From the NCBI GenBank assembly GCA_964016885.1, contig OZ024742.1, forward strand, positions 207,018,001 to 207,082,000: 64,000 bases of DNA, read 5' to 3'. The number at the start of each line of letters is the position of its first letter. Position 1 is the stretch's first letter. The position numbers and the translations under genes were made by a program. A model generated the notes under the pieces. The model was not told where the DNA came from and did no database searches. It worked only from the letters and a program-made list of their open reading frames with translations. Shown here one piece after another: positions 10,457 through 33,799 of this stretch. The DNA comes from Eledone cirrhosa. Its lineage: Eukaryota.

Positions 10457-10507
10457 AATACTACTACTATTACTACTACGAATAATAATAATAAAAATAA
10501 TAATAAT

Positions 10508-13500
10508 GATTTCTTTATTGGCCACGAGGACTAACACGAAGAAAAACATTAGAGACGGCACAGAACAGTACAGGATGATACAAAGTGGATTTTGGTCGTG
10601 TAAACAGGTTATAACAAAATCGGGCTAGAAATCAAAAAGGGGGAAACCTCCGAGGGTCACTCATGGCGAAAACCACACACAAGAGCACGGCCACCCTGTC
10701 CACCAGGGCAAGCGCCCTCTCTCAGTTTTCCCACTACCCAGTCTACAGGCGCATACTCAGAGCGGGCCCGTTCACTCGGACCAGACTCGCCACTTTCATC
10801 CACCTTTCAACAAGCTTACTAGAAGTCAGGACTTGCCTCTTCACCCTGATTTTCCTCTTCAAGTGAAACTTGAAAAAGTTAATCAGAGATTGGCCGGAGA
10901 GGAAAGTGTCCATCTTCAACCCTTTCATAATTGTCCACCACACAATGTCTTTCACCATTACCACCAGGCAGATGAAAACTGCCTGCCCTTTCTCCTCTTT
11001 AAAGGAGGATGGCAGGGCTGTCTGCACAATGGACTCAGTCGATAACCGGATTCGTCCTACACGCGACAGCAACTGTTCGACATAGCTTCACAAGTCAGCA
11101 ATCCTCTGGCACTGAACGAGTGCATATAGGACGGTTTCGTCGCCCTGCGCATATCTCGGACAGGCTCGGCTAATAGCACCTCCGTGCCTGTAGAGCTTAT
11201 CCCGAACTGGCAACGCTCCCCGGTAGCACTGCCACACCAGGCATTTCTGGAAGTTGTCCATAGGCCCCGGGCTGAAAGTTCTCTTGGAGAGAGCGAACAG
11301 CTGATCGTCTTTGGCACCCAGGGTCTCTACGAGAACGTCGTCGCCCTTCCCCTCCACTACCCCTCTATAGAACACCGAGGTGGATGTTCCACCGATATCA
11401 GTGCCCAGCTGGTAAAGGATGGTGAGCGCTTGGAGACATTCCAGCTTCCAAGCGTTATCCCTCAGACTTTTCCGGATCCGGGATTGTAGCTCTGTCAGGG
11501 AAACGAGCTGGGGAAAAGCGCGTCTGGCAAACGGTCACAACACCGGTTCACCGTCAAGGAAGCACCAGAGATGTCGCAGCCTCAGCGCATGTTTGTGCAT
11601 CATCGGCACAGAATGCCCAGTCCTCCACGCAACGGTGCTGACAGCAGATGGATCGTCTGACCATGGGAGCACGTGCCTTCCACAAAAAGCAGAAGAGAAG
11701 GCGCTCCATTTTGGTGAGAGTTGGATGGGGGCAAGGTTCGACGGTCAGGCGGTAGCAGATGACAGACGCGATGTACGCATTCGCGACCTCCGCCCTACCT
11801 TTCAGAGACAGGATCCTCTCAGCCCATTTCTGGGTGAGAGAAGCCACCCTATTCGTCACCTTGTTCCAGTTTTTCTCCATCTGGAGGTCTGGATCAAATC
11901 AGACCCCGAGCAATTTAACCGGTCCTTCCGTCTAGCGCCCCACGACGCTGTCGGATGGCATAGACTTGCCTCTCCAGGTGCCGAATTACAAGCCCACTGA
12001 CCTTTCTTGGTTTATCTTTGATCCTGTCACTGCTTCGTATTCCTTGAGAGTGGTGCCTAGCATTTGGACGCGTTTGGTGGTCGACACAACAACGGTGACG
12101 TTGTCGGCGTAAGCCGACACGGTACTCCCGCATCCCAGTTCGCGAGGGACCCTCCTCATTGTCTCCAATGTTTGCAGTAATGGCTCGAGGGCCAGTACGT
12201 ACAAGAGGGACGAGAGGGGACAACCCTGGCGGACCGAGCGCATGATGCTGAACGGCTGCGACAGGTGACCATTCACACTCACAATCGAGCAGATGTCGCT
12301 GTGCATTGCAGCGATCCAGCCCCTAAAAACGGGCCCAAAGCCGGCCGCCTCGAGGACCGCAGCCAGGAACCGATGGTTGACTCTATCAAATGCATTAGAT
12401 TGATCCAAGTTGATCAGAGTCCCATCTGTGCCAGGTTCCTTAACCACCCTCTCTCTGATGGAGGTTGTCGTGGATGGATCTGTCCGGAATGAGGCATGTC
12501 TGCGCCTCTCCCACCAGATCACCGATGACAAGCACCAATCTCTTTGCTAATACCTTGCCAAAATTTTGAACTCTGCGTTTAGCACAGTTATGGGCCTGAA
12601 GTTGTCTATAATGTCCCCCTGTTCGGGTCTTTTCTCAACAGCGCCACCGCACTTCGGCTCACAAAACTGGGAATGCTCCCGTTCTTCTGCCAGTTGCAGT
12701 AGAGGTCTGCCAAGAAGATTAGCATGTATGCATAAAGTTCGCAGGGCAGACGATCCAAACCTCGCGATTTGCCCCTCATGCAGTCAGACATCGATCGCTT
12801 CCCGTATTTCACCTGCTGTTATCGTTTTTGCAGCATGACGCTGCAGTCATCAGGAGCCACCGTCGAGAGCCCCGGCTTTCTGTCGAGGTATGCCCCGAAG
12901 TCCATACTCCGATCTGGCTCGCCGCCACTCCCGAACAATTGACAAATTACTGTTGAAAACCCGCACACATCTGCTCGGGTTCGAGCAAAATGTGCTTGTT
13001 TTGATCAGGAAAAGACCGAATTGTGGATCTGTTGCCACGTCGCGCCCCCACCACCTTGATGGTGCTGTTGCTGTTGCTACTGCTACAAACGGTGTTGTCG
13101 ATGTTCTTGATGTTATCACCGTTGCAGTCGTTGTATATTTGGTGCCGCCGTTGTTGTTCTTGGTGGAGGTTGTATTGTTGCTGTTGGTGTTGTCGCTATT
13201 TATTTTCTTGTTAGTGGTGTTAATATCGTTGTTTGTGGTGGTGTTTGTTGTATCAATTTCTGTGTTCGCCGTAACCCTCCTCTCAATGTTTACGCCCTTG
13301 TCACGTGACAGCAGACATATCACGGCGGGGGATTAGGAGGGGGGCTCAGACATGTTTTTAAAAATAATTTTTGAATGTAAAAAGTTCAAATATTTGGGCC
13401 AAAAGGCCCAAATACTATACTTTCCCCTTTACAGGGCAAAGTCCAAGGGCTTATGTCCCTTACACGACAACAAATATTTACAATAAATGATTTATGACAA

Positions 13501-13548
13501 GTGAATAAAGAGACTTACGGGAGCGAGCAAAAAGACGTCCAATCACAT
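10508..13548 (-). mobile_element. Tx1-clade LINE copy A (both termini, large internal deletion)
   Basis: RT and CCHC fragments homologous to copy B (QGCPLS, AYADN, GRAEVANAYI, CPRYAQGDETVL, VNGPALSMRL). ORF2 is fused at ~13047 to a Thr/Asn-rich ORF1 start. AATAAA plus (ATT)n tail; 5'UTR hairpin at 13391-13414. Confidence 0.9.
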
Positions 13549-13817
13549 CAATAATGATTTCTTTATTAACCACAAGGGTTTACATAAAGTAGACATTAAG
13601 GACAGTGCAGGACAATGCAGGACGGTACAAATGGGCATTTCTGCGTGTAAAAAAACAAAAACAGAGGATGTAACAAAAATAACAATGAAAATAACAATGA
13701 AAAATTCCCCAATAGGGGGGAGACTTCGGAGGGACATTTGTGGAGAAAGCCCAGTAAAAAGCCACAATGACCCTGACCACCAAGGCAAGTGCCCTCTCCC
13801 AGTTTTCCACCTTTAGT

Positions 13818-16800
13818 TTACAGATATATACTCAGAGTCGGCCCATTCACTCGGGCCATTCTTGCTTCTCTCACCCATCTTTCAACAAAATGCTGGGAAG
13901 AGAGCACTTCCCTCTCTACTCTGATTTTCCTTTTCAAATGAAATTTGAAAAAGTCAATCAGAGCATCACCGAAGAGGTAAGTGCTCGTCTTCAGCCCTTT
14001 CAAACGTGTCCACCATACTATCTCTTTCGCCATGGCCACCAGACAGATAAAAACTGCCTGCCCTTCCCGGCTAAAGGAGGAGGGCGGGGCAATCCTCACG
14101 ATAGACTCAGATGATAGCTGGATCCGTCCTAAACGCGACAGCAGGTGTTCGACATAAACCCACAAGTCAGCAATTTTCGGACACTGGACGAGTGCGTGCA
14201 GGACGGTTTCGTCGCCCTGCGCGCATCTCGGACATGCCCGGCTGACGGCACCTCCATGCCTGTAGAGTTTATCCCGAACTGGCAAGGCTCCTCGGTAGCA
14301 CTGCCAGGCCAGAGATTTCTGGAAGTTGTCCATAGGCCCTGGCCCGAAAGTTCTTCCGAAGAGATTGGCTAGTTGATTTTCGTCGACGCCTAGAGTTTCC
14401 CCAAGTACGTCGTCGCTCTTCCCCTCCACTAATCCTCTATAGAACGCCGAGGTGGAGTTTCCACCGATCACATTGCCCGATTGGTCGAGGGCTGTGAGCG
14501 CCTGAAGACATTCCAGTCTCCAGGCGCTCCCTCTCGGTCTTCGCTTGACCCAGGACTGCAGCTCCGTCAAGGAAACGAGCTGGGGAAAAACGCGTCTAGC
14601 AAACGGCGACCACACCTGATCACCGTCGAGGAAGAGGTGGAGATGTCGTAGCCTGAGCGCGTGCCTGCGCATCATCAGCCACGGCATGCCCAGCCCTCCA
14701 CGTAGCGGGTGTTGACAACAGATGGACCGCCTGACCATCGGAGCGCGTCCCTTCCACAAAAAGCGAAAGAGCAAACGCTCCAGCACAGTCAGGCGAGGCT
14801 TAGGACAAGGTACGACGGTCAGGCGGTAGCAGATGACGGACGCGATGTACGCGTTAGCCACCTCCGCTCGACCTTTCAGGGATAGCTTCCTCTCGGCCCA
14901 TTTCTGGGTGAGAGAAGCCACCCTGCTCGTCACCTCGTCCCAGTTTTTGTCCGTCTGGAGGTCCGGACCGAACCAGACCCCTAGCAATTTAACCGGTCCG
15001 TCCGTCCAGCGTCCGACGACGCTGTTGGACGGCATGGACCTGCCTCTCCAGGTGCCGAGCTGCAGGCCCACTGACTTTTCCTGGTTGATCATTGCTCCTG
15101 TCACCGCTTCGTATTCTCTTAGTGTAGTGCCGATCGCCTCGATGTGTTTGGCGTTCGACACCACTACGGTGACATCGTCCGCATATGCTGATACGGATCT
15201 TCCGCATCCTAGTTCGCGCGGGACCCCCCTCAACGTCTCCAGTTTGTGCAGTAATGGCTCGAGAGTCAATACGTACAAGAGGGACGAGAGGGGACATCCT
15301 TGGCGGACCGAGCGCATGATGTTGAACGGTTCCGACAGGTGACCGTTCACTCTCACCACAGAGCAGATGTCGCTGTGCATGGCAGCGATCCAGCCTCTGA
15401 AGACGGGCCCAAAGCCAGCCGCCCTCAGGACTGCCGCTAGGTAACGATGGTCGACCCTATCGAAAGCTTTCGACTGATCTAAATTGATCAAGGACCCACC
15501 CGTGCCAGGTTCCCTAGCTACCCTCTCTACGATGTATCGCATGAGGTGGAGGTTGTCGTGGATGGATCTGTCGGGAATGGCGCATGTCTGCGCCTCTCCC
15601 ACCAGACCACCAACGACAAGCGCCAACCTCTTTGCTAGCACCTTGGCCAAAATCTTAAACTCTGTGTTTAGCAGAGTTATGGGCCGGAAATTGTCTATGT
15701 TATCCTCCTTGTTCGGATCCTTTCTCAGCAGTGCCACCGCTCCTCGGCTCACAGAACTGGGAATTCTCCCGTTCTGTTGCCAGTTGCAGTAGACGTCCGC
15801 CAAGAGGCCTCCGAACAAGTCTGGCATCTGTACGTAAAGTTCATAGGGCAGACCATCCAAACCAGGCGATTTACCCCTTGTGCAGCCAGTCATTGCCTCC
15901 CTTACTTCAGCGGCTGTTATCGGCTTTTCGCAACACTTCGCCTCAGTGGCCGAGAGCCGCGGCAGTCCGTCGAGGTAGACACTAAAGTCCATCCCTCTAC
16001 CCGGCCCACCGCTGCCCCCGAACAGCTGAGCGAAGTGTCGCTGAAAAGCTTCACACATTTGCCCGGGATCGAGTAGCATGCGCCCGTCGTGGTCCACCAA
16101 AGACCGGATCGTGGCTTTGTTGCCACGACGCGCCTCCGCCACTCGGGCCCATTGAACGGCTTTCGTCCCCTCGTGTCTGAGAGCACGCACCCTTGCTCTG
16201 ACAACGCAGCCTTCGTGCTTTGCATTGAAGAATTGGTCAAGGGCCAATTTCGCCGCAAGCACGTCGGTCGCAATGCCTTTGCTAAGCGCCTCGTCTAATT
16301 TTCTAACTAGTTCTCCCTCTGCTCTATTTTTCTCTATTGCTAAAGCCTTACTAAATCTAATCGATTCTATTTTAATCGCTCTTTTCAGAGCAAACCACCA
16401 CTTGTTGTTGACGATGGCCCCCGTCAACGCCCGCTTAACTAGTTCGCTAATCCGGTCTCTGTAGGCCTTGCGCGCTGGTAAGGACGCGTTTAGCTTCCAG
16501 TAGCCGGGTCCTCGTCTATGAAGCCTATCTAAGTCAAGCACACAGATCACGAATTTGTGGTCCGTGTAGCTGACTATCTTGAATTGTGGACAGCCTATGC
16601 TAGACCTATCTATTTCCCTACAAAATACTCTATCTAGTTATGATCTGGATGACCCTATGCGGTTTGTCCAAGTCCACATTGGCACATTCGGGAAATCCAA
16701 TCGGTACCTGTCAGACAGTTCAAAACGCCTGAGCAGGTTGGTGAGGCTCTTGCACCCTCCACCCCTATCCGCTAATCCCACACAGTCCCAGCGTGCATCT

Positions 16801-17237
16801 AAGATCCCGTTCCAGTCGCCCACTAACACTAAAGAGCGCGACGTTCCAAGAAAGGTCTCCAGACGCCGGAAGAAATCAGGCCGCCCTGCTCCTGTCGGGG
16901 CATAGACGGCCACTAGCCTGAAAGCTTGCCCGTCTCCGCTGGTCACGTCCAGCACCACCAGCTTACCCTCTGGGTCCAGGAAGATGGCCCGTATGGCGAG
17001 ATCCAAACCTCTCCGAAAAAGTACAGCAACTCCTCCACCGGATCCAGGACGGCTGGGAGATGCGTACACATCGTAGCCGCCGAAGATCGGTGCGAAGGCC
17101 CGTGCTTCGGAGATTCTGGTCTCGCTGATGGCCACTACATCTATGTTTAGTGACCTGAGGTCGTTGAGCAGGTGACCCTGCTTCCATGACGACCCCAAGC
17201 CACGTGCATTTATGCTGCCTATTCTGAGTGAGGTCAT
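13818..17237 (-). pseudogene. Tx1 ORF2 (APE endonuclease, reverse transcriptase, C-terminal CCHC), ~1139 codons, one in-frame TAA at 16638-16640
   Basis: The 199-aa and 910-aa ORFs are in the same frame. APE motifs: SINARG, ISET, VYAP, GDWN, S*LDR, TDH. RT motifs: SPGLDG, RPITLLN, DQSKAFD, RQGCPLS, YADD. C-terminal CPRC...H...C. Confidence 0.93.
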
Positions 17238-17272
17238 GTTTAAAATAGAGTGGAAAAGATGGGAAAGACCAC

Positions 17273-19369
17273 TTACCGTACTTTTGGTAGAGGAGGGATG
17301 GTTTTTACATCCCTTTTCACTTGATCGTCTGGTGAAGGGACCGTTGAATCGTCCCTTCGGCTGGTCGTCGGCTCTTCTAAGAGAATGTCTGAGTATACTC
17401 TTCGATTGATGGTTCCTCCTAGGTCCCTGAAATCACCAACTGCGTTGGGGAATTTCGTTTTAATATTTGTGTATTGTTTCTGTGCTATCTTTAGCAGTCT
17501 TATGTTAGTTGGCGTTTTGATTGGTGCTGGTATTATGTAGTCCTGTTGTGAAATGTCTGTGTGTTCAATTATGTAAGTCATTAGTTTCTTGTTGTGTGTA
17601 TTTATTGCCGTGCATTTGTTTTTCTGGGGGTGGGGTGTGGTTCTGCTATTTTCTTGTCGTTGTTGCTGGGTGTGTGTGTTTTGTTGTTGTGTTTGCGATG
17701 TTGGTGCTTGTGGTGGTGGTGTTGAAGGTGTTGTTGGCGGTGGGGTTGTCGCCGGTGGTGATGGTGGCGCTAGTGTGGGTGGTGATGGTGTTGGTGTTGT
17801 TGCTGCTGTGGGTCTCTTTGCAGTAGACTTTACCCTTTTCTCATTTCTTTCCTCCCTTTTCAAAGGCGACGATGCGCTGCTTCTGCGTTTGTGCCTTCTT
17901 ACGACCTTTTGCCATCTCTCTCCCACCTCACACTCCATGTCTGATTCTGTGAGGTCGGGGAGGGGTACCAACTCCACTCTTTCACTTGTTGTTGTTGGTG
18001 ATGTTTGCACTGGAGTCTCTGTTGCAGCTGCATTTGGTATTGCTGTTGTTGTTGTTAGTATTTCCACTGCTGCTGCTGTTTTTGATTTCCGTGGAGTGGG
18101 TATGGGTGCCACGGGCCTATCGTTCCTGGTTGCCGCTTGTCCTGTTGCTGGTAGCCGTGGAGCCGGATTCGGAAGGAGGGGGGTTTTCTCCTTTCTCAGG
18201 GTCTTCTCGTTGCAGAAGGCCCTGAGGTGAGTCTTCGATCCACAGCGAAAGCATTTCGGGCGTTTGCCCTCAACACTTATGGGCAGTTGAGTGCCGTTAT
18301 CGAAGTCTATCACATCCGGGATAGCTTCGATGCACTCCTGGTTGGTTTGGATTAGCATCTCAATGGAGGAGCCGACCCAATATTCTCTTACTTTTTTCTG
18401 TACTTGCAGTACAGTTGTTTTGTCCTCGATTCCGACGAGGACAGACGCGGCCAGCCAAGAAGGAGTCATTCCGGGGGGGACGTGGGTTAGTTTGACCCTC
18501 ACAATTTTTTGCCCACAGTAGGAGGGCACCAACACCATTTCCTCGCTCCTTAGGGTCACTACTGATTGGGCCTTTGCCTCCTGGGGTGTGGCAAAAAGTA
18601 CGTCTACGGTGGCATATTTTTTGCCTCGGGTGATGTGCGTTTTCCGCTGCCACACAGACCCCAAGGCTTTTTGTATTTGGGCCTCTGTGGCTCTTTCCAC
18701 CCTACGGGATTTTGTACTTACTGTACGGTACGTGACCGTACAGTGCTCTTGGGTTTCGAAAAATTTTTTCGCTGCCTTGCAGATTGCTCGGTGTCCGTTC
18801 TTTGTCACCATCTTCTTCGCTTCCTCTAATTCCTCATTTGTTATGAGGATTGTTTCCAAGTTTTTCGCAATACCTGCAAATGAGATTGGTTTTTCTCTGC
18901 TGTTGTTGTTGTCGTCAGAGCTGCTGGTACTTTTGTTGTTGCTGCAGGTACTACGACTACTGCCTCCGCCGCTGTTGCTGTGGTTGTTGTTGGTGTTGCT
19001 GCTGCTAATGCTGTTGTTGTTTATGCTGCTGGTGATGCTGTTGCGGCTGCTACTGTTGTTTTCATTGTCACTGTTGCTGTTGTTATTACGGCTGCTACTG
19101 CTATTATTCCTGACGTCAGACGAATGAACTGGGTTTTCGTATTTCCCGCACACCTGTTTCGTCGCTGTCGTCGTCGTCGTGGAGAAACTTTGCACGCTTT
19201 GCACGAGACTTTTCTTTTCTTTCGTCACTTGCGAAAGAGAAGGGAGGGAGAGAGACACATTTAAAGAAGGGAGGGAGAGAGACAATCTTCTCTCTGCTGT
19301 AGTGATGATTGAGGAAGAAGAAGACGGAATGAGTGGGAGTGACGTATGAAATTTCTTTTTCGTAGCCAT
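17273..19369 (-). CDS. Tx1 ORF1p, 698 aa
   Basis: Open frame with a Ser/Asn-rich N-terminus, RRM-like middle region, zinc knuckle CFRCGSKTHLRAFC (CX2CX4HX4C) and a Pro/Thr-rich region. Confidence 0.9.
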   Translation of the reverse strand: MATKKKFHTSLPLIPSSSSSIITTAERRLSLSLPSLNVSLSLPSLSQVTKEKKSLVQSVQSFSTTTTTATKQVCGKYENPVHSSDVRNNSSSSRNNNSNSDNENNSSSRNSITSSINNNSISSSNTNNNHSNSGGGSSRSTCSNNKSTSSSDDNNNSREKPISFAGIAKNLETILITNEELEEAKKMVTKNGHRAICKAAKKFFETQEHCTVTYRTVSTKSRRVERATEAQIQKALGSVWQRKTHITRGKKYATVDVLFATPQEAKAQSVVTLRSEEMVLVPSYCGQKIVRVKLTHVPPGMTPSWLAASVLVGIEDKTTVLQVQKKVREYWVGSSIEMLIQTNQECIEAIPDVIDFDNGTQLPISVEGKRPKCFRCGSKTHLRAFCNEKTLRKEKTPLLPNPAPRLPATGQAATRNDRPVAPIPTPRKSKTAAAVEILTTTTAIPNAAATETPVQTSPTTTSERVELVPLPDLTESDMECEVGERWQKVVRRHKRRSSASSPLKREERNEKRVKSTAKRPTAATTPTPSPPTLAPPSPPATTPPPTTPSTPPPQAPTSQTQQQNTHTQQQRQENSRTTPHPQKNKCTAINTHNKKLMTYIIEHTDISQQDYIIPAPIKTPTNIRLLKIAQKQYTNIKTKFPNAVGDFRDLGGTINRRVYSDILLEEPTTSRRDDSTVPSPDDQVKRDVKTIPPLPKVR

Positions 19370-19604
19370 GTTGTTTTTTGTTTAAAATGAATATTGGGTA
19401 CAAAACCCCAATAACTGGTTATTTAGCCCCGAAGGGCCAAATAACGGACAGAAAGACCCCTCTCACGAGGAGGAGGGTGTCTTTATCAACAATTTGGTTC
19501 AAGTTTTAAACAATTTACAATTGTTTTAACTGTTAAAAATTACTATACCTTACAGAGCCGAGCCTCCGTCAACCATGGCATTCAATAATAATAATAATAA
19601 TAAT

Positions 19605-20128
19605 ATGCAAAGTAAACAATTTACCACATTCTGAGAAGTGGTATGAGCATAAGCCAGAGGCGGTGATAGAAAACGATCAGGTGAAGGTGCTGTGGGATTT
19701 TAGGATACAGACGGATAAGAAACTGGAACACAATAGACCTGACCTGGTGGTTTTGGACAAAGAAAAAAGATCGTGCCTGATTGTGGATGTGGCCTGCCCA
19801 TTCGACACGAGAGTGCAAGAGAAGGAGAGGAAGAAAATTAACCGATACCAGGACTTAAAGTGGGAGGTAAAAAGGATTTGGAACTGCCATGAAGTCAAAG
19901 TGATCCAGATTGTCATAGGCGCACTAGGGACTATCTCAAAAAGTCTCCAGGGATGGTTAAAGAAAATTGGCCCCTTCACGCTTTTTGGAACGCTTCAAAA
20001 GGCATGCTTGCTGGGAACAGCAAGAACCCTCCGATACGTCCTGAATATGTGAGGCTGCAGGTAGTGGCTTGATATTCATTTCAACAAACTTTCCAGTTAA
20101 CTAACATCAATGACTGAGACTCAAAGAG
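19605..20128 (+). mobile_element. R4/Dong-type RLE retrotransposon 3' fragment
   Basis: Restriction-like endonuclease motifs LWDF.IQTD..HNRPD...IVDVACP...KINRYQDL; near-identical to 21915-22436; ends in (TAA)n. Confidence 0.9.
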
Positions 20129-20135
20129 TAATAAC

Positions 20136-20186
<51 letters not shown>

Positions 20187-22434: not shown

Positions 22435-22436
<2 letters not shown>
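20187..22436 (+). mobile_element. R4/Dong-type RLE retrotransposon, 5'-truncated (RT, CCHC, REL)
   Basis: NWKSPGPDG, YRPITCL, QKGC, DYRKAFDMVPH, GIFQGDSLSP, FMDD, CRIC..H..C, RHD and PD-(D/E)xK motifs. Open except a 1-nt deletion near 22307. Flanked by (AAT)n. Confidence 0.92.
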
Positions 22437-22471
<35 letters not shown>

Positions 22472-22488
22472 TATAATAATAATAATAA

Positions 22489-22730
22489 TCGTGCCTGATT
22501 GTGGATGTGGCCTGCCCATTCGACACGAGAGTGCAAGAGAAGGAGAGGGAGAAAATTAACCGATACCAGGACTTAAAGTGGGAGGTAAAAAGGATTTGGA
22601 ACTGCCATGCTTGCTGGGAACAGCAAGAACCCTCCGATACGTCCTGAATATCTGAGGCTGCAGGTAGTGGCTTGATATTCATTTCAACAAACTTTCCAGT
22701 TAAATAACATCAATGTCTGAGACTCAAAGA
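22489..22730 (+). mobile_element. Third short 3' fragment of the same R4/Dong family, internally deleted
   Basis: Matches 22081-22200, then jumps at a CATG microhomology to the terminal segment; AAT tail. Confidence 0.88.
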
Positions 22731-22752
22731 ACAATAATAATAATAATAATAA

Positions 22753-23839
22753 AACTGCAACAATTGGATTATCTACATATCTAAGGGAATCACATGATTG
22801 GATGATCAAACTCGTTTTGAAACACGAAAGCATCAAAAGATCATACTCCATTACACAAGATGCACAAAGATACAGTGATGGACTACACATTTCAGAAGTC
22901 CCATTTACTGCTGAAATGGAAAACACAGAAAAGGCAAAGCAGGTAAAAGTAACTGCAAAGAAAGAACTGCTACAGAAACTGGCTAAGAAATGGCAAGAAA
23001 AGCCTCTGTATGAGGCTAACAATCCTGATGTTGACAAAACTTTAACCCATCAGTGGTTGGCATCCTCTGGACTGAAATCGGAGACTGAAGGACTGATTAT
23101 ATCAGCACAAGATCAGTGTCTGCCAACAAAAAATTACCAAGCCAACATAATAAAAAATGAATGCAGCCCATTATGCCGTGTATGTAAAAAACAACCAGAG
23201 ACGATTGATCATATAATTTCAATGTGCAGTCCTATAGCTCCAACCGAATACCTAAACAGACATGACAGAGCTGCACAATACATACATTGGATAATGTGTA
23301 AGCATTTTGACCTGCCCCATCAAAAGAATTGGTGGGAGCATCAACCACCTCCCATACTTGAAAAAGATCACATCTCAAATAGACCTGATATAATACTGAA
23401 GGACTTTAAAAAGAGGGTATGTGTGCTAATTGATATGTCCGTTTCAATAGACAAGAATGTATCTATAAAAACATTTGAAAAATTGAGCAAGTATAAGGAC
23501 CTGGAGATAGAAATTGAAAAAATGTGGAAATTGAGAACTAAAACAATACCAGTGGTTTTAGGCGCTCTAGGAATGATACCTAAGGAGTCTAATGATTACT
23601 TATCGGAAATCCCAGGAAACCCGCGTATAGGAGAAATACAAAAGATAGTACTAATGGGAACTGCCCATATACTAAGGAAGATTCTGTCAATATAAGTACA
23701 TCACAAGTCTAAACAGCTAAAGATGCATGTGTGTGTATGTATGTTCTTTCTTGAACAAGGCGGACCTTGTTGTCTCTTGAGGTCACTGGTTGTGACTTGG
23801 TGATAACTCGTATGAACATAAAGCAAGATAAATGCAGCT

Positions 23840-23842
<3 letters not shown>
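22753..23842 (+). mobile_element. Second R4/Dong-type family, 3' fragment
   Basis: ORF 22802-23695: ETEGLIISAQDQ, CRVC..HIISMC, RHD, NRPDI..LIDMS..KLSKYKDL; ends in (TAA)n. Confidence 0.88.
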
Positions 23843-23889
<47 letters not shown>

Positions 23890-26275
23890 TTCATTTATTG
23901 GCTACAAGGGTCGACGTGTAGGGGACAATACAAAGACAGGGACAATGGGGTTTATAATAAGGTCGAGTAAAAGTGCACAATGGCAAGACTAATTTAACAA
24001 TGAAGATATAAAAAAATATAAAATAAACTATGCATAAATATAACAAAATAAATTCCCCTATAGGGGGAGGACAACCCAGGGATGACTCAGGTACTCCACC
24101 AATCCTCAACCAACCTGCGCTTCTAGGGCATCCAGGGAGAGCACCCCTCTCCTCAAGTTAGCTAGCCTGAAGGCGCATGGCCATTCACGCCACATTCATC
24201 CACCTTTCAGCAAATGTACTGGGGAGCAGCACTTCTCTCTCCAGCCTCACCTTCTTTTCTAGGTGAAACTTGAAGAAGCTGATGAGGGATTGGCCGAAGA
24301 GAAATGTATCTGTCTTCAGTCCTTTCAATGTGGTCCACCATATAACCTCTTTCGCAACGGCTACCAGACAGAGGAAAATTGCCTGCTCTTCCTGTCCAAA
24401 GGAAGGCGCGGGGTCGATGTTCACTATAGACTCGGCCGATAGCCGGATCCATCCTACATGCGACAGTAGCTGTTCGACATAACTCCACAAGTTAGCAATA
24501 CATGGACATTGGACAAGTGCGGAACGGTTTCGTTGTTCTGTGCGCATCTTGGGCAGGTCCGTCTGACAGCACTTCCATGCCTGTATAGTTTCTCCCAATC
24601 CGGCAGTGTCCCCCGGTAGCACTGCCAAGCAAGGGATTTCTGGAAATTGTCCATCGTCCCCAGCTCGAAAGTCCTCCGGTACAGACTGGTCAGTTCGACT
24701 TCGTCGAGGCCCAAAGCTTCTCCGAGTGCGTCATCGCACTTGCCCACCACTAATCCTCTATAGAACTCGAGAGTGGAAGTTCCAGTGATCGCATTGCCCG
24801 CTTGGTAGAGGGCAGTGAGTGCCTGGAAACATTCCAGGTGCTAGTCACCCAGTCTCGGTCACTTCTTGACCCAGGACTGCAGCTCAGTCAAATAAATGAG
24901 CTGCGGAAAGGCCCGTCTGATAAATGGCGACCACACCTGTTCACCGTTTAGGCGGAATATCTGGAGATGTCGCAGCCTCAGCGTATGTCTGCGCATCATT
25001 AACCACGGCATGCCCAGCCCTCCGCGTAGAGGGTGCTGGAATCAGATGGACTGCCTCAGCAACGGAACTTGTCCTTTTCACAAGAATTTGAAGAGGAGCC
25101 GTTCCAACTTGATGAGGCGTGGATGGGGGAAAGGCACGACGGTCAGGTGGTAGTAGATGACGGACGCGATGTACGCATTCGCCACCTCCGTGCAACCTTT
25201 CAGTCTTCTCCCTCTGTCCTTTTGATAACCAGAAGGGTAGTGTCTGTCCCTTCCTCGATTACGCATCCCAGGAGCCACCATATGTTCATTCCTGGTGGGA
25301 TCCTGGGAATGCGGACCTTTACTGTCCTTTTGCCCATGTAGGACGGGGGCATGATAATGCGTTCCATTCTGCAAGGGGTTACCGAGTGCTTAATAGCAAG
25401 GGCCTCGGTTTTGAACAGTACCGAGATGGTACCGAACTGCTTGGCCCTTGCTTTGTAATCGATGTCACTTCTGATGCACTGTAAAGTAGCCTTAACCTCT
25501 GCTTGGCTGGCGAGTTCCAATTTGCGTGTCTGCACTGAAATGCATCGAAAGTACACAGTCCTCCTTTGCATGGCCGCTATTGCCCCGTCCAGGATGGTCA
25601 AGTTTGCCCAGGACTTCTCCCGTTTAATTAAACTCCACGCCTGGGCTACCGGTTGCTCCTTATCGCTAATATCAACATTGAATAAGCGCTTTGTTTTCGC
25701 TGCTGCCGCTGCAAAGGTGGCGCCTCTGTTGCTCTTGTCTTTCTTGCTGTTGTTGTTGGTATTGTTGTTTTGTTTTGTTTGTTGTTGCTGTTGCCACCGC
25801 CATCAGTGTTTACATTGAGGCTGTCGGTGTTATTGTCGTTGTTGCTCTGAGTTGTTGTTGTGGTCGTGGCGGCGGTTGTGGTGGTGGTGATGTCGTTTTG
25901 AGATGGTACTGCTACTATCACAAAAGGGAGCGGATGTGATGGTAACTTTTGTGTTTTGCCTCCACATTCAGTGGAATGGACGACAGGCATGTCTGTAGTA
26001 GTAGTAATAGTTGTGATGAGATCTACAGTGGCTGTTTTTGAACTTTTGACCTGTACGTTGTTTCCCGTTTCAAAGTTTTTTCATGGGGGAGCGATTTTTT
26101 CGAAGTTTTTAAAATTAAATCTGAATAATATTGAGAGATCTCCCTTCCATGGAACCAAGGTGGGTACCTTTATGCTTCGTTAACGACAAGGAAATACAAA
26201 AAATAATACTTTAAAACAGCTTAAACTTACGAACCTTTTACGCCGCAGACTTGTACGTCTTCATACATGTGCGTC
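23890..26275 (-). mobile_element. Tx1 copy C (5'UTR and ORF1 N-half fused to the last ~1 kb of ORF2 and 3'UTR)
   Basis: ORF1 segment (RRTVYFRCISVQT...) joins ORF2 (LKG..EVANAYI) at ~25200 through a CTG microhomology. UTRs are homologous to copy E. Confidence 0.88.
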
Positions 26276-26299
26276 ATAATGATGATAATAATAATAATG

Positions 26300-29200
26300 C
26301 TTACTTTATTAACCACAAGGATTGACACAAAGTATAACATTAAGAATAACACAGGACAATACAAGACGGTACAAATAGGCATTTCTGCGTGTAAAAAAAA
26401 ACAAAAACATAGGATGTAATAAAAAGAGAAACAATGAAAAGTTCCCAACAGGGGGAGGGTGGATGGGTGGGTAGAAAGCACGTGGAGAAAGCCCCCAAAA
26501 AGCCACGGTTACCCTGACTGCTAGGGCAAGTGCCCTATTCCAGTTTTCCTCCTACAATGCTACAGGCACACTCTAAGGGCAGGCCCATTCACACAGGTCA
26601 TTCTTGCCTCTCTCACCCACCTTTCAACAAATTGGCTGGAAGGTAGCACTTCCCTCTCCACCCTGATTTTTTCAGGTGAAACCTGAAAAAGTTAATGAAG
26701 GAGTCACCGAAAAGGAAAGTACCCGTCTTCAACCCGTCAGATGCGCCCACCATGCGATCTCTTTTACCATGGCCACCAGGCAGATAAAAAATTCCTGCCC
26801 TTCCCGGCTAAAGGAAGGCGACAGGGCAATCCTCACGATGGACTAAGCTGATAGCCGGATACGTCCTACAAGCGACAGCAGGTGTTCGAAATAAACATAC
26901 AAGTCAGCAATTCTCAGACACTGGACGATTGCATGCCCTGCACGCATCTCGGACATGCCCGACTGTCGGCACTTCCATGCCTGTAGAGTTTATCCCGAAC
27001 TGGCAAACCTCCTCGGTAGCACTGCCAGGCCAGGGATTTCTGGAAGTTGTTCATGGGCCCCGGCCCGAAATTTCTCCCGAAGAGATTGGCTAGTTGATTT
27101 TTGTCGACGCCCAGAGTCTCCCCATAAACGTAGTCGCTCTTCCCCTCCATTAACCCTCTATAGAACGCCATGGTGGAGTTTCCACTGATATCATGGCCCA
27201 ACTGGTCGAGGGCTGTAAGCGCCTGTAGGCATTCCAGTTTACAAGCGCTCCCTCTCGGTCTTCGCTTGACCCAGGACTGCAGCTCCGTCAAGGAGACGAG
27301 CTGGGGAAACACGTGTCTAGCAAACGGCGACAACACCTGATCACCGTCGAGGAAGCGGTGGAGATGCCGTAGCAATTTAACCTGTCTCTCCAGGTGCCGA
27401 GCTGCAGGCCTACCGACCGACTTTTCCTGGTTGATCATTGCTAACGTCACTGCCTCGTATTCTCTTAGTTTGGTGCCGATCGCCTCGAGGTGTTTGGTGT
27501 TCGACATCACTACGGTGACGTCGTCTATATATCCTGACACGGTTCTTCAACATCCCAATTTTCTCAGGATCCCCTCGACCTCTCCTTTTTTTTGCAGTAA
27601 TGGCTTGAGAGTCAATACATACAGCAGGGACGAGAGGGGACATCCCTGGCGGGCCGAACGCATGATGTTGAACGGTTCCGAAAGGTAACAGTTCACTCTC
27701 ACCACAGAGAAGATGTCGCTGTGCATGACAGTGATCCAGCATCTGAAGACGGGCCCAAAACCAGTCGCCCTCAGGACTGCCGCCAGATAACGATGGTCGA
27801 GCCTATCGAAAGCTTTAGACTAATCTAAATTGATCCCTGGTACCCCACACTTACCAGGTTCCCTAGCTACCCTCTCCACGATGTATCGCATGAGGTGGAG
27901 GCTGTCGTGGATGGATCTATCTGGAATGGCACATGTCTGCGATTCTCTCACCAGACCACTGACGACAAGCGCCAAGTTCTTTGCTAGCACCTTGGCTAAA
28001 ATCTTGAATTCTGGGGCCTAAAAAGAATGGGCCTAAAATTATCTATGTCATCCCCTTTGTTCGGATCCTTTCTCAGCAGCGCCACAACTCCTCGGCTCAC
28101 AGAGCTGGGAATTCTCCCATTCTGCTGCCAGTTGCAGTAGACGTCTGCCAAGAGGTCGCCGAACAAGTCTGGTATGTAGGCATAAATCTCGTAGAGCAGA
28201 CCATCCAAACCTGATAATTTACACATTGTGCAGCCAGTCATTGCCTCCCGTACTTCAGAACTGGAAATTCTCCCATTCTGCTGCCAGTTGCAGTAGACAT
28301 CTGCCAAGAGGTACGCATAAAGCTCGTAGGGCAGACCATCCAAACCAGGCAATTTACACATTGTGCAGCCAGTCATTGCCTCCCGTACTTCAGTGGCTGT
28401 TATCGGCTTTTCGCAACACTCCGCCTCAGTGGCCGAAAGCCGTGGAAATCCGCCGAGGTAGGCACTAAAGTCCATCCCGTGATCCGGCACTCTACCGCCC
28501 CCGAACAGCTGGGCGAAGTCTCGCTGAAAAGACTCACACATTTTCCCGGGATCGAGTAAGATGTGGTCCGTTGTGGTCCACCAAGACTGGATCGTGGCTT
28601 TGTTGCCACGACGCGCCTCCGCCATTCGGGCCCATGGAACGGCTTTCATTCCCTCATGTCTGAGAGCACGCACCCTAGCTCTGACAACACAACCTTCGTG
28701 CTTTGCGTTGAAGAATTGGTCGAGGGCTAAGTTCGCCGCAAGCACGTCGGTCGCGATGCTTTTATTAAGCGCCTCGTCTAATTTGCTAACTAGTTCTCCC
28801 TCTGCTCTATTTTTCTCTTTACTAACGCCTTACTAAACCTAATGGTGTCTATTCTAATCGCTCTTTTCAGGGCAAACCACCATTTGTTGTTGACAAACGC
28901 CCCCGTCAACGCCCGCATAACTAGTTCGCTAATCCGGTCTCTGTAGGCTTTGCATGCTGTCAACGACGTGTGTAGCTTCCAGTAGCCGGGTCCCTGTCTA
29001 TGAAACCTATCTAAATCAACCACACAGATCACGAATTTGTGGTCCGGGTAGTCGACTATCTTGAATTGTGGACAACTTATGCTAGACCTATCTATTTCTC
29101 TACAAAATACGCTATCTAGATATGATATTGACGACCCGATGCGGTTTGTCCATGTCGACATTGGCACATTCCGAAAATCCAATCGGTACCTGTTAGACAG

Positions 29201-31010
29201 TTGAAATGGTCTGAGCAGCTTTGCGAGGCTTTTACACCTTCCTCCTCTATCCGCTAATCCCACACAGTCCCAGCGTGCATCTAAGATCCCGTTCCATTTC
29301 TCACTAACACTAAAGAGCGGGACGTTCCAAGAAAGGTCTCCAGACGTCGGAAGAAGTCAGGCCGTCCTGCTCCTGTCGGGGCATAGAGAGCCACTAGCCC
29401 GAAAGCTTGTCCTTCTCCGCTGCTCACGTCCAGCGCCATCAACTTACCTTCTGGGTCCAAGAAGACCGTATCTCGAGATCCAGACTTCTCCGAAACAACG
29501 CAGCCACTTCTCCTCCGATCCGGGACGGCTTGGAGATGTGTACACCTCCTAGCCGCCGAAAATGGGTGCGAATGCCCGTGCCTCGGAGATTCTGAACTCG
29601 CTGATGGGCACCACATCTATGTTTAGCGACCTGAGATCGTTGAGGAGATGACCCTGCTTCTAAGACAACCCCTCGCCATGAGCATTTATGCTGCCTATCC
29701 TGAGAGAAGCTATGTTGGCTAGGATAGGAGGAAAACAAGTAAGAAGGGAAAAGTAAAAAATAACTTTACCTGTGGCTCCTTTTTAGGAAGAGGGTGGGTA
29801 ATCCATCCCTCCGACCAGTGGCGGGTTTCACCACGAGAATGTCTGAGTATATTCTTTTAGTGATGTTCCCTAAGTTCCAATTGATGTGGGGGAATATTTT
29901 TTTCAATGCTATGCAATTTTTTGGGGTGACCGCCATCAGCCACGCGATCTCCACTGACGGCGGAATCTGTGTTACTCGGACCCTCACAACTCTCTGGCCG
30001 CAGTATGTGGACATTATTATTATTTCGTCACTGCGGAGTAGCGCAATGGAGTGTGCTCTGGCTTCTTCCGGTGTAGCGAAGAGCACATCCACATTGCCAT
30101 ACTTCGATCCTCGGGCTATGTCTATTTTCTGTGCCGAGACGGCACCCATAGCCCTTTGGACCTGCGACTCCGTTTCCCGTTCGACTCGGCGAGATTTTAG
30201 TCCAATTGTGCGATAACTGACCGAACACAAAAGCTTGTTTTTCATTATATTAGCTGAGTGGGTGAGACTTACCCTGTGTCCGCTCTTTTTTACCAAGATC
30301 TTGGCTTGCCTCATCTCCGTGTCGCTAACGTGTACATGTTCGACATTTTCTGTCGCTTTTGCGAATGATGTGGCTTCTGTTTGCTGTGTTGGTTCATCGT
30401 TACTCTTGCTTTTGTTGTTGTTGTTGTTGTTGGTGGTGGTGGTCTTGTTAGTTTTTTCTTCTGTTTTGCTGCTGTTACAGTTGTTGTTCTTTGCGTTCTT
30501 TGTGGATGTTGCTGTTGTTATTGTTGCTAAGATGGTGGTGATGCTGGCGTTTGGATTTTTCTTGCAAATGGGAACATTTTTTCGTAATAATTTGGCGCTG
30601 TGCTGCTGCTGATAATTTTAAAGTCTTTGTTGTTGGTGCTGCTGCTGTTGTCACTGCTACTGCCACTGTTACTGCTGTTGTGATCATTGCTAATGCTACT
30701 GTGGCTGCTGCTGTTTCTGTTGTTGTTACTTCTGTCTTGCGATTGGATGGAATCGGCTGTTCCACTTTCTGAATAATTCTGTTCTTCCCTGTGGACAATT
30801 TCTTTCGTTCGTCATGCTTTTTTTAAACAAAAAATTGAAGGGTATGATTGTAAATAAACACGAATTCAGCCCTTAAGGGTGCGAGATATAGTTTAAAAAC
30901 CACCTCCTTTGAAAGAGGGGTATAATATACTATAAAACAGTTTCAATGAACACCTGCAAAATCAACTGACTTACTCCGTCATAGTTACACACGAATTGAG
31001 AGATTCAGCA
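26300..31010 (-). mobile_element. Tx1 copy D (both termini, decayed, internal deletions and one duplication)
   Basis: ORF2 is highly similar to copy B with frameshifts. ORF1 (ATG 30815) lacks the knuckle region. AATAAA plus ATT tail. Confidence 0.92.
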
Positions 31011-31026
31011 CAATAATAATAATAAT

Positions 31027-33385
31027 GGTTTCATTTATTGGCCTCAAGGGCCAACATATAAGGAACAATACAAGGACACAGACAGTAGGAGTTTACAATA
31101 AGATTGAGTAAAAATGCACAAAAACAAAATCAATTTAACAATGAAGAAAAGATAAATATAAACTATGTATACAAATAACAAAATAAATTCCCCAATGGGG
31201 AGGGGGTGAACCACCCAGGGCCGACTTCGGTACTCCACCAATCCTGAACCACCCGAGCTTCTTGGGCACCCGAAGAGGGCACCCCTCTCCTCAAATTAAC
31301 CAGCCTTTAGGCGCATGGTCAGAGTAGGTCCACTCACACAACACCAACCTTTCTTTTGGGAACCTTTTCAAAAGTCTCGACGTAGGTTTCACGTTCGGGG
31401 TTCCCGCATCCTCTCGAATTCATTTGTAGGAATCGAGTGACATTTGCACCAGAAACAAATCTTCTGGCACGTGAAATGTGTTCGATTAAAAAATCTCCCC
31501 CTCTGTTTGAATTTCTTCACTTCGTGCTACGAGGGCCATCAATTTGTCGTTGGTCTTCTGTATGTTTTGTTGGTTTTGTATGTTTTGTTGGTGCGGCTTT
31601 ATTTATTTGTGTGACGTTGGTGGTGATGGTTTGGTTGGTATTGTTTCGGTTGTGCCTGGGTTTGTTGTGGGTGCGGTGCCTGCAATTTCAGGTGTTTGTG
31701 TGTTTATTTGTCCTTGTCTCTGTTTAGGATGTTTGCGTTTGGGGAATTGTGGGGATGGTAGTGCTTTGTGGAAGCTTTTTCTTTGTGTTTTCCTTTTTGA
31801 CGGATTTGGGTTTTCCCTCATCTTCACTACTGGAGGATGAGGGTCTTTGGCTGTAAGTGTATCTGTGTCTGTGTGTGCGTTTATGTTTTTGTCCATGTGT
31901 ATATTTTGAGTGGGGTGGGTGGTAGAGCTACCCCCGTTTTCCCCCTGGGTTGGTTTTGGTGTTGGTGGTGGTTCGACTGTTTTTGCTGTTGGTGGAACTT
32001 TCTGTCCCGGCACTGGCATTTGCAGCAAAGGAGGTTTGTTCCCCTCTGCATTTTTGAGCTGAGGGCAAAAGACTCGCAGATGCGTTTCTTCACCGCAGAC
32101 GAAGCAGTGCAGCCTTCTTCCCTCAGTAATTAACTGAATCGCTGTCCCGTCCTGCAGGCAGATAAAGTCAGGAATGTTATTTAACTCTTCTGGTTTTATT
32201 TGGAGAAGAATCTCCAAATACATCCAGGACCAGTCCTCTCTGTCAGTCTTTTTTTTAATATCTACGAGGATAGTGTCGGTACCCTCCTCGGTTACGCATC
32301 CCAGGATCCGCCATAGGTCCATTCCTGGTGGGATCTTAGGTATGTGGACCTTCACTGTTCTTTTGCCCATGTAAGATGGAGGCATAATGATGCGTTCCAT
32401 TCTGCAGGGTGCCATGAAGTGCTTCATAGCAAGGGCCTCGGTTTTGAACAGCACAGAGATGGTGCCAAACTCTCTGGCCCTTGCTTTGTATTGAAAGTCA
32501 TCGTTAATGCATTCCAAAGCAGCCTCGACTTCTGCCTGGCTGGCGAGTTCCGCCTTATGAGTTTGCACTGAAATACATCGAAAATGTAAAGTCCTCCTCT
32601 GCATAGCCGTTCTTGCTTAATCCGGGATGTTTAGGTTGGCTCAGGATTTCTCACGTTTAATTAATTTCCACTCCTAAGCAAACTATTGCTCCTTGTCTGT
32701 GATATCAACGTTAAAAACACGTTTTGTTTCAGCAGCCGCCGTCGCTGTGGATGTGCTGTTTTTGTTTAGTTTGTTGCTGCTCTCACTGTTGCTCTTGTTG
32801 TTAGTGTTGTCGTTCTTGCTGTTGTTTTCATTATTGCAGTTTTCAAATTATTGTTATTGTTGTTTTGTTTGTTGTTACTGCTGCTATCGTTATTAATGTT
32901 TTTATTGGGGCAGTTGATGTTGTTGTTTTTCTTATTTCTTGTTGTGGTACTAGCGGCAGTGGTGGTGACGGTGGTTGGTGGTGGTAAAGTAGAACGTTTA
33001 ATGTGTGATATGACTGTGGTCAGTGGTGCTGGATGTGAGAGAATTGTACATGTCTGTGGTGGTGGTGGTGGTGGTGGAGGTAATAGTAGTAGTAGTAGTG
33101 GTGGTGGTGGTGGTTCTTTTTGACCTTTTAAACTGCAAGTTGTTTACAGATTCAGGGTGAAATTCTTTCATGTTATTCTTTTTGAGAAAAAGTTTTTAAA
33201 AATATATCTGCATATTCGGGCCTAAAGCCCAAATATTGAAAGGTTTCCCTTCCTTGTGGCCAAGGTGGGTACCTTATGCTCCGTTATCACCCTCCCACAC
33301 AAAATAACACTTTAAAACAACTTAAAATTACGAACCTTTTCTCTTGCAGACTTGTAATGTCTTATCCTTTTAATACCAGCAGACT
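31027..33385 (-). mobile_element. Tx1 copy E: ORF1-only derivative lacking ORF2
   Basis: 5'UTR, ORF1 (ATG 33171), only ~15 terminal ORF2 codons (VSGPTLTMRLKAG*), then a 3'UTR homologous to copy C. Confidence 0.85.
31603..32604 (-). pseudogene. Tx1 ORF1 core of copy E (333-aa open segment)
   Basis: Aligns to the ORF1 of copies B and C; knuckle CFVCGEETHLRVFC. Flanking ORF1 parts contain stops. Confidence 0.85.
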
Positions 33386-33414
33386 AATTATACTACTACT
33401 ACTAATAATAATAA

Positions 33415-33620: not shown

Positions 33621-33799
33621 TTATTATTCCAAAGTATAACAATAACAATTAATGTTATAGGAACAGTTAATTAAATTAGCAGGTTTTGAATTGAAATCAT
33701 CATTTTACATCTGCTCTCTATTTAGAAGGGAATTTTTGAGGCAGTATTTTGTGGCTGGATGGCCTTCCTAATGTCCACATTTTTAATTCTAAAAACTGT

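Follow-up and report, generated by a model that had tools for sequence, protein, structure and literature searches.

A block of about 23 kb in the genome of the octopod Eledone cirrhosa is composed of nine LINE copies from two lineages, which very probably accumulated by independent TPRT insertion of both lineages into pre-existing (AAT)n, each in a fixed orientation opposite to that of the other. The block lies in a window of 64,000 nucleotides (assembly GCA_964016885.1, contig OZ024742.1, positions 207,018,001 to 207,082,000), to which all coordinates refer. Flank specificity, the orientation rule, co-clustering of the two lineages, and the mixed ages of the copies were all observed, and so were tracts already present in SINE tails and in a foldback element. 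Two observations limit this model: most copies that lack a 5' terminus end off-tract, and some neighbours look duplicated. The features of the block are as follows; names beginning with L denote genomic loci.

10459..10507, no strand: left edge, (TAC)n then imperfect (AAT)9; 3' flank of copy A
10508..13549, minus: Tx1-like copy A, both termini, internal deletion of ~2.7 kb, old (best identity 86%)
13550..13555, no strand: two AAT units, joining the 5' end of A to the 3' end of B
13556..19583, minus: Tx1-like copy B, full length, young, 99.2% identical to L103
13818-17240, minus: ORF2 of copy B, APE-RT-zf, with a single stop at codon 201
17273-19381, minus: ORF1 of copy B, open, 702 aa, CCHC knuckle
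19584..19605, no strand: (AAT)7, head-to-head between the 5' end of B and a truncated Dong-like 5' end; tail of neither
19606..20127, plus: R4/Dong-like 3' piece, matching the final 522 nt of a 4846-nt reference
20128..20186, no strand: imperfect (AAT)19 tail or tract
20187..22435, plus: R4/Dong-like, 5'-truncated, youngest (99.7-99.8%), open RT-CCHC-RLE frame
22436..22489, no strand: (AAT)18 with one interruption
22490..22730, plus: short R4/Dong-like piece, internal deletion of ~110 nt
22733..22752, no strand: (AAT)6
22753..23841, plus: 3' piece from a second family of R4/Dong-like elements, with CCHC and RLE-like motifs
23842..23889, no strand: (AAT)16, tail-to-tail junction
23890..26275, minus: Tx1-like copy C, old (82-90%), with both termini and a large internal deletion
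26276..26298, no strand: AAT tract with a GAT-GAT interruption
26299..31011, minus: degenerate Tx1-like copy D with an ORF1/5' region of its own, an internal deletion, and a short duplication
31012..31026, no strand: (AAT)5
31027..33363, minus: Tx1-like copy E, the oldest (74-82%), with most of ORF2 deleted
33364..33390, no strand: unexplained 27 nt adjoining the 5' end of E
33391..33415, no strand: right edge, (TAC)4(AAT)4, SINE tail, candidate second copy of the TSD
33417..33625, minus: SINE with an (ATT)n tail; candidate array seed

The initial annotation had described nine LINE insertions, with five Tx1-like copies all on the minus strand and four R4/Dong-like pieces all on the plus strand, and all nine were located and assigned coordinates. 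Its statement that AAT tracts alone separate them holds at the eight inner junctions, all of which read AAT and never ATT on the forward strand; at the right edge, 27 nt lie between E and the tract, and the junction at 13550 is here corrected to two AAT units only. Chance is excluded as the source of these tracts, as (AAT)3 occurs within 30 nt after a random position in only 1009 of 398,800 cases (0.25%). The further statement that no element body is interrupted agrees with the absence of any detected foreign insertion, but for about 1.2 kb of the ORF1/5' region of D (29718-30626 and 30716-31008) the fetched loci contain no close relative. Internal deletions are found in A, C, D, E, and the piece at 22490, RT is still recognised in A, and E is without about 14 nt of the 5' terminus of its relative L192. 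Identity of the window copies to their own best relatives ranges from about 80% to 99.8%, so that copies of mixed ages stand side by side.

An assembly artefact, in which repeats were chained through their AAT tracts, is scarcely credible as the source of the block. No piece listed in three contig sets (one sample) or in two RAD-seq runs (other samples) bridges a junction, and these sets and runs likewise hold no usable empty allele; the public data appear to be short-read contigs, possibly from the assembled sample. However, coverage of the sequence unique to D and E shows zero mismatches and a depth of 7-12, against 9-13 in the single-copy flanks, a mis-join would not follow a clade-specific strand rule, and the same junction types are found in more than 100 loci. 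A joint that seemed to skip copy D was rejected, its short side being 19-20 letters of simple repeat throughout. Public runs of other organisms contained 0.04 of the query words and give no evidence either way.

The ORF2 of the Tx1-like elements encodes an N-terminal APE, an RT, and a C-terminal zinc finger (Exo_endo_phos, RVT_1, and zf-RVT), with an open frame of 1204 codons in L103. The best solved relative of its RT is L1 ORF2p (E 2e-52, compared with 4e-21 for R2), and its APE matches L1 endonuclease chains. Members of the Tx1 clade have a separate ORF1 with a gag-like CCHC knuckle; the 702-aa ORF1 carries a Cx2Cx4Hx4C motif and has no Pfam match. The Tx1 label is thus one of architecture rather than of a tree, since no homolog hit carried the Tx1 name. 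In L152, an R4/Dong-like copy, a single frame of 1141 aa contains an RT, a CCHC finger, and a C-terminal endonuclease of PD-(D/E)xK type, and no APE, these motifs being read by eye. R2 proteins are the best solved relatives (E 1e-29), and full-length copies have a uniform 5' end. The R4/Dong label is likewise provisional, as the homologs bear no clade names and HERO, NeSL, and R2 are alternatives; microsatellite targets are also possible for HERO families (PMC4640811). Neither L152 nor L103 gave a match to a self-cleaving ribozyme family of Rfam at E values up to 1.

The initial annotation had made its reading depend on flank composition and orientation, and genomic copies were therefore scored for AAT or ATT at the 5' junction and for orientation. 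In four Tx1-like groups, copies that retain an intact 5' terminus carry AAT there in a fixed orientation, so the reading was not refuted. In the young family B, whose copies were chosen on APE identity, AAT is present at the 5' junction in 39 of 40 copies and ATT in none; these copies are 97.6-99.4% identical and abut the repeat with base precision. Family A has AAT in 25 of 29 5' flanks and ATT in one (L230), and relatives of C and E with a detectable terminus have AAT in 18 of 23. After pooling and de-duplication, 131 of 142 Tx1-like 5' ends adjoin AAT and one adjoins ATT, far above the criterion for specificity given in PMC4494074, which is a common target in more than 20% of flanks. The R4/Dong-like elements show the TAA-repeat insertion expected of Dong, with AAT at the 5' flank in 19 of 20 focal copies and 29 of 32 pooled. 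The proposal that both lineages share one target on opposite strands is supported: the R4/Dong-like family occupies the same tracts as the Tx1-like lineage, in the other orientation.

The alternative that insertion is unspecific, and that copies merely survive and accumulate in tolerant AAT-rich regions, was weighed with a sample by position of 42 copies from the list of Tx1-like 3' ends. All 23 copies with a 5' terminus end at AAT. Among the 19 without it, five end at AAT and two more do so weakly (read by eye), and the other 12 end in other sequence, in other microsatellites, in direct contact with a Dong-like element, or unresolved; it is these 12 that would fit unspecific insertion. Retention cannot, however, yield base-precise abutment in 39 of 40 closely similar copies or a strand asymmetry of 131 to 1, and a control LINE family stays at background, with any tract at 4 of 30 loci and at 6 of 60 random pieces. 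The alternative is thus very improbable overall, and for intact copies it is already contradicted.

It is also conceivable, if unlikely, that the 5' tracts are self-made, either because the element RNA was read through from a tract upstream or because of a template jump to the tail, and that the target is only a few AAT units or A+T-rich DNA. The 5' tracts of older families often have only 2-5 units (medians 4 and 5, compared with 8.5 and 16 in young families), in unselected loci the SINE tails mostly have 1-3 units, and in L088 the 5' side is one unit longer than the 3' side, all of which would agree with such an origin. Against it, the foldback element has its AAT tract even when empty, and neighbours in fixed orientation across common tracts require reuse of the site. 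Even the short targets are AAT in one orientation; therefore this alternative bears on how large the target is and leaves untouched that there is one. TSD length does not agree between copies, being 21-30 nt in L081, about 7 nt in L199, and no more than about 6 nt in window copy B, and the 5' tract of family B has a floor near 18 nt. A single fixed TSD length was ruled out by short 3' tracts and by the junctions of L081 and L199.

The two outer edges of the block had been noted as alike, and 28 of 33 aligned columns, including 21 of the last 22, are indeed equal, in sequence of low complexity. The right edge had been taken for a SINE tail, and it does belong to a minus-strand SINE, as its 3' tail; this SINE has a presumably tRNA-like head and three further copies in the window. 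The edges may plausibly represent a target-site duplication. The right TAC/AAT tract does not adjoin E because of the intervening 27 nt. Among older Tx1-like families, 14 of 34 copies sit on SINE tails. In unselected loci the SINE itself is not AAT-specific, with AAT at 2 of 12 5' ends. When its 3' end was compared with those of the LINEs, copy E alone exceeded all 500 shuffles; likeness to A-D did not rise above the shuffles (34-210 of 500), nor did that to the Dong-like ends. The SINE as a possible partner of the Tx1-like LINE is therefore a lead. The AAT tract of the foldback element hosts copies in L103, L114, and L199, and an uninterrupted foldback copy lies in the window.

Matches to 3'-end motifs number about 10,000 per clade in the genome (about 11,000 for the Dong-like elements), and both clades include copies with open ORFs. 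In the first 43.65 Mb of contig C1, a Dong-like 3' end lies within 15 kb of 56 of 100 Tx1-like 3' ends, compared with 4.2 expected, and 53 of these 56 pairs have the relative orientation seen in the window. All 23 tail-to-tail pairs no more than 200 nt apart are consistent in orientation, and 32 of 142 Tx1-like 5' ends stand head to head with a Dong-like piece across a tract that is the tail of neither. The block is estimated to be one of a few thousand such clusters and no special locus. The pattern likely recurs because both kinds of element cut AAT repeats and their insertions leave fresh repeats. That each new tail regenerates the target, as had been suggested, is supported by imperfect tails common to unlinked copies, found at 32 of 116 Dong-like and 3 of 164 Tx1-like 3' ends; the GAT-GAT interruption of the tract at 26276..26298 is common to two such copies, L004 and L007. 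SINEs interrupt element bodies at L290 and L293.

Arrays could also be enlarged when units are duplicated in tandem, when crossing-over is unequal, or when multimeric read-through RNA is inserted. Some growth by duplication does occur, since in 4 of 12 adjacent family-B pairs each member is closer to the other than to any of the remaining copies among 39 (one pair is identical over 1.4 kb), and L296 contains an exact-looking duplicated unit. As the main route it is nevertheless decidedly improbable: 7 of the 12 pairs rank 6th or lower among the 39, the five Tx1-like copies of the window are only 68-87% alike, and the Dong-like pieces are truncated at different points.

Under independent insertion into pre-existing tracts, and following the standard TPRT model, the Tx1-like APE would nick the AAT-reading strand and the RLE the ATT-reading strand, and the repeat tail of each RNA could pair with the primer. 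Every insertion would leave a tract on both sides, consisting of the split target, any duplication, and the RNA-borne tail; the number of targets would therefore grow and the site could be reused. Element bodies would be spared because they are without such tracts. At this locus, the old copy E may have come first, at the SINE tail, later copies would have filled the tracts to the left of E, and B and the piece at 20187 would have arrived last.

Every ingredient of this model has a precedent, and a specialist would probably regard it as a sound further example but not as a surprise. R1 (APE) and R2 (RLE) exploit one multicopy target, the 28S rDNA, at distinct sites in the gene, and insertion destroys the site; the present elements are likewise an APE and an RLE lineage on one multicopy target, but here the site would be multiplied instead. 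Already published are Tx1 elements that target microsatellites, Dong elements that target TAA, TRAS and SART facing opposite ways, and SaTar arrays without nesting. Kibi at (TC)n, Koshi at (TTC)n, and crocodilian families at (TTCC)n/(TTTC)n, as described in the available text of PMC4494074, are APE-type LINEs of the L1 group with microsatellite specificity; (ATT)n on the element strand is not among the targets in that text, and here the host is an octopod and the target is common to an RLE element. Dong, DongAg, and DongBg insert in TAA repeats, according to PMC3812793; they share with the present elements the single RT-CCHC-RLE ORF, the (TAA/AAT)n flanks on the sense strand, and thus a known target, but here there are many thousand 3'-end matches, and the copies are stacked both among themselves and with copies of an APE lineage. 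TRAS and SART of Bombyx are two LINE families that form arrays on one short repeat in opposite orientations; according to PMC10088271, both are R1-clade APE elements confined to telomeres, whereas here unrelated endonucleases use a dispersed microsatellite, which seems to become longer through the elements.

The window has the layout of the SaTar MULE arrays of guayule and rice, in which microsatellite targeting gives non-nested rows of mixed families and tracts are reported to be longer after insertion (PMC5907723): unrelated elements stand in a row, with microsatellite between them and none interrupting another. Its members are LINEs, not MULEs with terminal inverted repeats, so the block works like a SaTar array yet is not one. 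SaTar elements are small non-autonomous DNA transposons in plant (TA)n, whereas here autonomous LINEs of 5-6 kb form arrays of tens of kb under a clade-specific strand rule. The non-nested architecture would thereby be extended from plant DNA transposons to autonomous animal LINEs. No ATT-targeting Tx1-like lineage with an RLE element on the same target was found in the literature searched.

Octopus annotations report expansion of both L1-Tx1 and Dong-R4, TE hotspots, and, in O. vulgaris, recent activity with 1129 Dong-R4 and 421 L1-Tx1 insertions; in the available main texts no target preference, orientation rule, or array structure was found (PMC13282606, PMC8967140, and PMC9115989). The hotspots have so far been reported without a mechanism for TE clustering in cephalopod genomes, and the present arrays offer a possible one. 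It may be speculated, though it is rather doubtful, that octopods hold a self-feeding niche in which the Tx1-like lineage, having evolved (AAT)n specificity, also mobilises the abundant SINE, the short ATT tails of that SINE seed new sites, and, together with the Dong-like lineage on the opposite strand, thousands of arrays of 10-50 kb are expanded that make up a large part of these hotspots. Two unrelated endonucleases would then have converged on one target, each multiplying it for the other. At sites of this kind, faulty results are to be expected from AAT markers and from insertion callers that use short reads. A natural pair of APE and RLE elements, each with many open-frame copies, appears to read one trinucleotide repeat from opposite strands, and therefore microsatellite targeting and RNA-tail pairing can be assayed side by side. 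The repair of the stop in copy B that had been proposed for an APE assay is unnecessary, because there are genomic copies that share its APE sequence and have an open ORF2.

The nine-copy block reported by the initial annotation was examined in the window (G000:C3:207,018,001-207,082,000; genome size 3.0 Gb) by reading the sequence, self-alignment, Pfam, and alignment to long genomic copies. Together these confirmed five APE-RT elements on the minus strand and four RT-RLE pieces on the plus strand, separated by AAT tracts, within 10508-33363.

about 10459-10507: left outer edge
10508-13549, minus: copy A, Tx1-like (APE-type)
13556-19583, minus: copy B, Tx1-like
19606-20127, plus: R4/Dong-like (RLE-type) piece
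20187-22435, plus: R4/Dong-like, the 20187 piece
22490-22730, plus: R4/Dong-like piece
22753-23841, plus: R4/Dong-like piece
23890-26275, minus: copy C, Tx1-like
26299-31011, minus: copy D, Tx1-like
31027-33363, minus: copy E, Tx1-like
33391-33415: right outer edge
33417-33625, minus: SINE with (ATT)n tail
40052-40577: foldback element

The inner junctions (8/8) each hold a tract of between 2 and 19 units, always in the AAT sense with respect to the plus strand. Both termini are present in A-D; about 14 nt are missing from the 5' terminus of E, next to which lie 27 nt of unexplained sequence. Copies A, C, D, and E are old, with internal deletions and best identities of 80-90%, and for 1.2 kb of D the loci extracted contain nothing closely related. 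The young members are B (99.6%), in which ORF1 is open and ORF2 is interrupted by a single stop at codon 201, and the 20187 piece (99.8%). Alignment with long genomic copies revealed no foreign insert in the LINE bodies of the block, in agreement with the earlier view that the elements are not nested in each other. SINEs are inserted within Tx1-like bodies at two other loci (L290, L293); therefore, non-nesting is true of both LINE lineages, not of the SINE. The outer edges are indeed alike (28/33 alignment columns match) and the right one is a SINE tail, as first described; that they form a target-site duplication (TSD) is plausible, but each edge is simple repeat and the right one is set apart from E. 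One sample, possibly the one assembled, has contigs that cover the unique parts of D and E and both flanks with no mismatch at single-copy depth; no junction-bridging piece was found among the contig pieces listed for that sample. Three further elements lie outside the array (3204-4071, 37396-39166, and 51967-52608): an old LINE piece that bears an RT and is interrupted by a (TA)n run, and two Penelope-like pieces that match GIY-YIG weakly.

Homolog searches for both lineages gave no match that bears the name Tx1, Dong, or HERO; the labels 'Tx1-like' and 'R4/Dong-like' are therefore based on architecture and target. For the APE-type element, named homologs come only from Argonauta hians and Octopus sinensis, which points to an octopod host. 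Among solved structures, the APE-type ORF2 is closest to L1 ORF2p and the RLE-type ORF to R2 proteins; the APE-type ORF1 has a CCHC knuckle. A degenerate motif of the Tx1-like 3' end (from A, B, and D) has 9,847 genomic matches and a 17-mer of the Dong-like 3' UTR has 10,993, with 0 for each control. All 150 APE matches listed show 100% identity with copy B across 200 aa and most have open frames of about 1,160-1,200 codons, while many Dong-like matches lie within 1141-codon frames. Judged by copy numbers, identity to B, and open frames, both lineages appear to have been recently active. A second young subfamily, B2 (L061, L070, L073, L074, L076, L077, L079, L080, and others), has an ORF2 94-96% identical to that of copy B and a different ORF1 and 5' UTR; its 5' ends are at AAT in 26/26. 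L078 and L284 resemble between-family chimeras. Full-length Dong-like elements carry, in the 5' UTR, one to three copies of a tandemly repeated unit of about 330 nt (in L152, about locus positions 2430-3080).

For family B, the genomic relatives of copy B, 40 of the 150 listed matches were picked by long frame and spacing, irrespective of flanks. AAT repeats lie no more than 5 nt from the 5' end in 39/40 and ATT in 0/40; the lone exception abuts a piece of another copy. In family A, 30/40 matches yielded loci, one being the window itself; of the remaining 29, 25 have at least (AAT)3 inside 30 nt, 1 has ATT, and 3 have neither. A terminus was detectable at 23/29 loci of C/E relatives, with AAT at 18/23. 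By the initial annotation, mostly non-AAT 5' flanks or random orientation would refute a shared target; the pooled, de-duplicated APE-type 5' ends (n=142) comprise 131 with AAT, 1 with ATT, and 10 with neither, in a set that takes in neighbouring copies and is therefore biased towards arrays. Among 20 long-frame RLE copies out of 150 listed, the AAT tract is upstream in 19/20 and downstream in 20/20. In twenty background 10-kb stretches at round coordinates, 0.25% of positions satisfy the AAT-flank criterion. An old RT family elsewhere in the window, which we take to be RTE-like, has any tract nearby at 4/30 loci vs 6/60 random pieces, and is a rough control only, being older than the test families. 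At four loci (L164 upstream junction, L230, L207, L249) AAT gives way to ATT within the tract where it meets a junction, which may stem from fold-back or template switching at insertion.

Copies were also sampled from the 3'-end list (first 53 by position, 42 resolved). Those with a 5' terminus end at AAT in 23/23; for the 19 without one, junctions read by eye gave a tract end in 5, a weak tract in 2, and none or unresolved in 12. Later deletions could account for the missing tracts. The whole sample has AAT in 28/42, well above the 20% of flanks used as a criterion for target preference in Tx1 families in PMC4494074. The proposal of ATT-specific Tx1-like families with a target common to an opposite-strand RLE clade is supported with qualifications: copies with a 5' terminus have AAT flanks in a fixed orientation, and most copies lacking one end elsewhere. 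Some of the latter (L292, L294, L298, L287, L061) end at (GAA)n, (AT)n, (TG)n, or TAG-rich microsatellites, which suggests deletion at repeats or relaxed joining.

In the first 43.65 Mb of contig C1, 43/99 gaps between APE-type 3' ends are at most 15 kb (3.3 expected), 40 of them same-strand. A Dong-like 3' end lies within 15 kb of 56/100 APE-type 3' ends, against a mean of 4.2 and a maximum of 14 in 1,000 circular shifts; relative orientation is as in the window for 53 of the 56, and for 23/23 pairs at most 200 nt apart. Both 3'-end lists together give 45 multi-member clusters (31 mixed, 39 single-orientation; the largest 54 kb), which extrapolates from this one region to roughly 3,000 genome-wide. 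One of the 20 background stretches (L181) landed in such an array. Among 12 adjacent family-B pairs, ranked by identity among 39, 4 are closest, 1 is second, and 7 are 6th to 36th, suggesting mostly independent insertions with some duplication.

In the literature, Tx1 families target (TC)n, (TTC)n, (TTCC)n, and (TTTC)n (PMC4494074), TAA is the target of Dong (PMC3812793), target-specific clades are described (PMC4640811), TRAS and SART insert facing opposite ways (PMC10088271), SaTar arrays are non-nested (PMC5907723), and L1-Tx1 and Dong-R4 are reported from coleoids, where both activity and hotspots are described for O. vulgaris (PMC13282606, PMC8967140, PMC9115989). PMC1950540, PMC5786205, PMC4700185, and PMC3124438 leave the reading unaffected. 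Full-text searches of article main texts, in a collection with few subscription journals and no Repbase, gave no account of a Tx1 family specific for ATT/AAT or of arrays that mix Tx1 and Dong.

The same imperfect tail start recurs in 32 of the 116 Dong-like 3' ends, and copy D has a GAT-GAT interruption in common with two unlinked copies; tails are thus probably carried on RNA. At L081 an interruption is present twice, implying a TSD of 21-30 nt, vs 6-7 nt at most in window copy B and L199. Under the TPRT model, the strand nicked first is the complement of the RNA. The APE would thus first cut the AAT strand, and the RLE would first cut the ATT strand, the tail of each element's RNA pairing with the primer. 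Each insertion would split the tract and add repeats, so that targets would multiply between elements and element bodies would be spared. The self-extending landing pad first envisaged gains from tails common to unlinked copies and loses from neighbours that look duplicated; its extension step we infer.

Targets also pre-exist. At 32/142 APE-type 5' ends, a Dong-like piece is opposed over a tract that neither element has as its tail, and window junction 19584 is of this type. The foldback element has arms of 229 nt that are 98% complementary; in the uninterrupted state both arms carry an AAT/ATT tract, and a (TA)n run follows the element; at L103, L114, and L199 a Tx1-like copy sits in its AAT tract. 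The 5' tract runs directly into a SINE 3' end in 14/34 ends of family A, 3/24 of C, 1/1 of E, 2/56 of B, and 1/26 of B2; SINE tails were thus frequent landing sites of old families, as at the right edge in the window. The median 5'-end tract rises from old to young families (4, 5, 8.5, and 16 units); the shorter tracts may reflect decay, changed preference, or progressive lengthening. The SINE 3' end (33417-33456) resembles that of E (31027-31066), a score reached by 0/500 shuffles, with A-D less alike, and a SINE-LINE partnership is possible.
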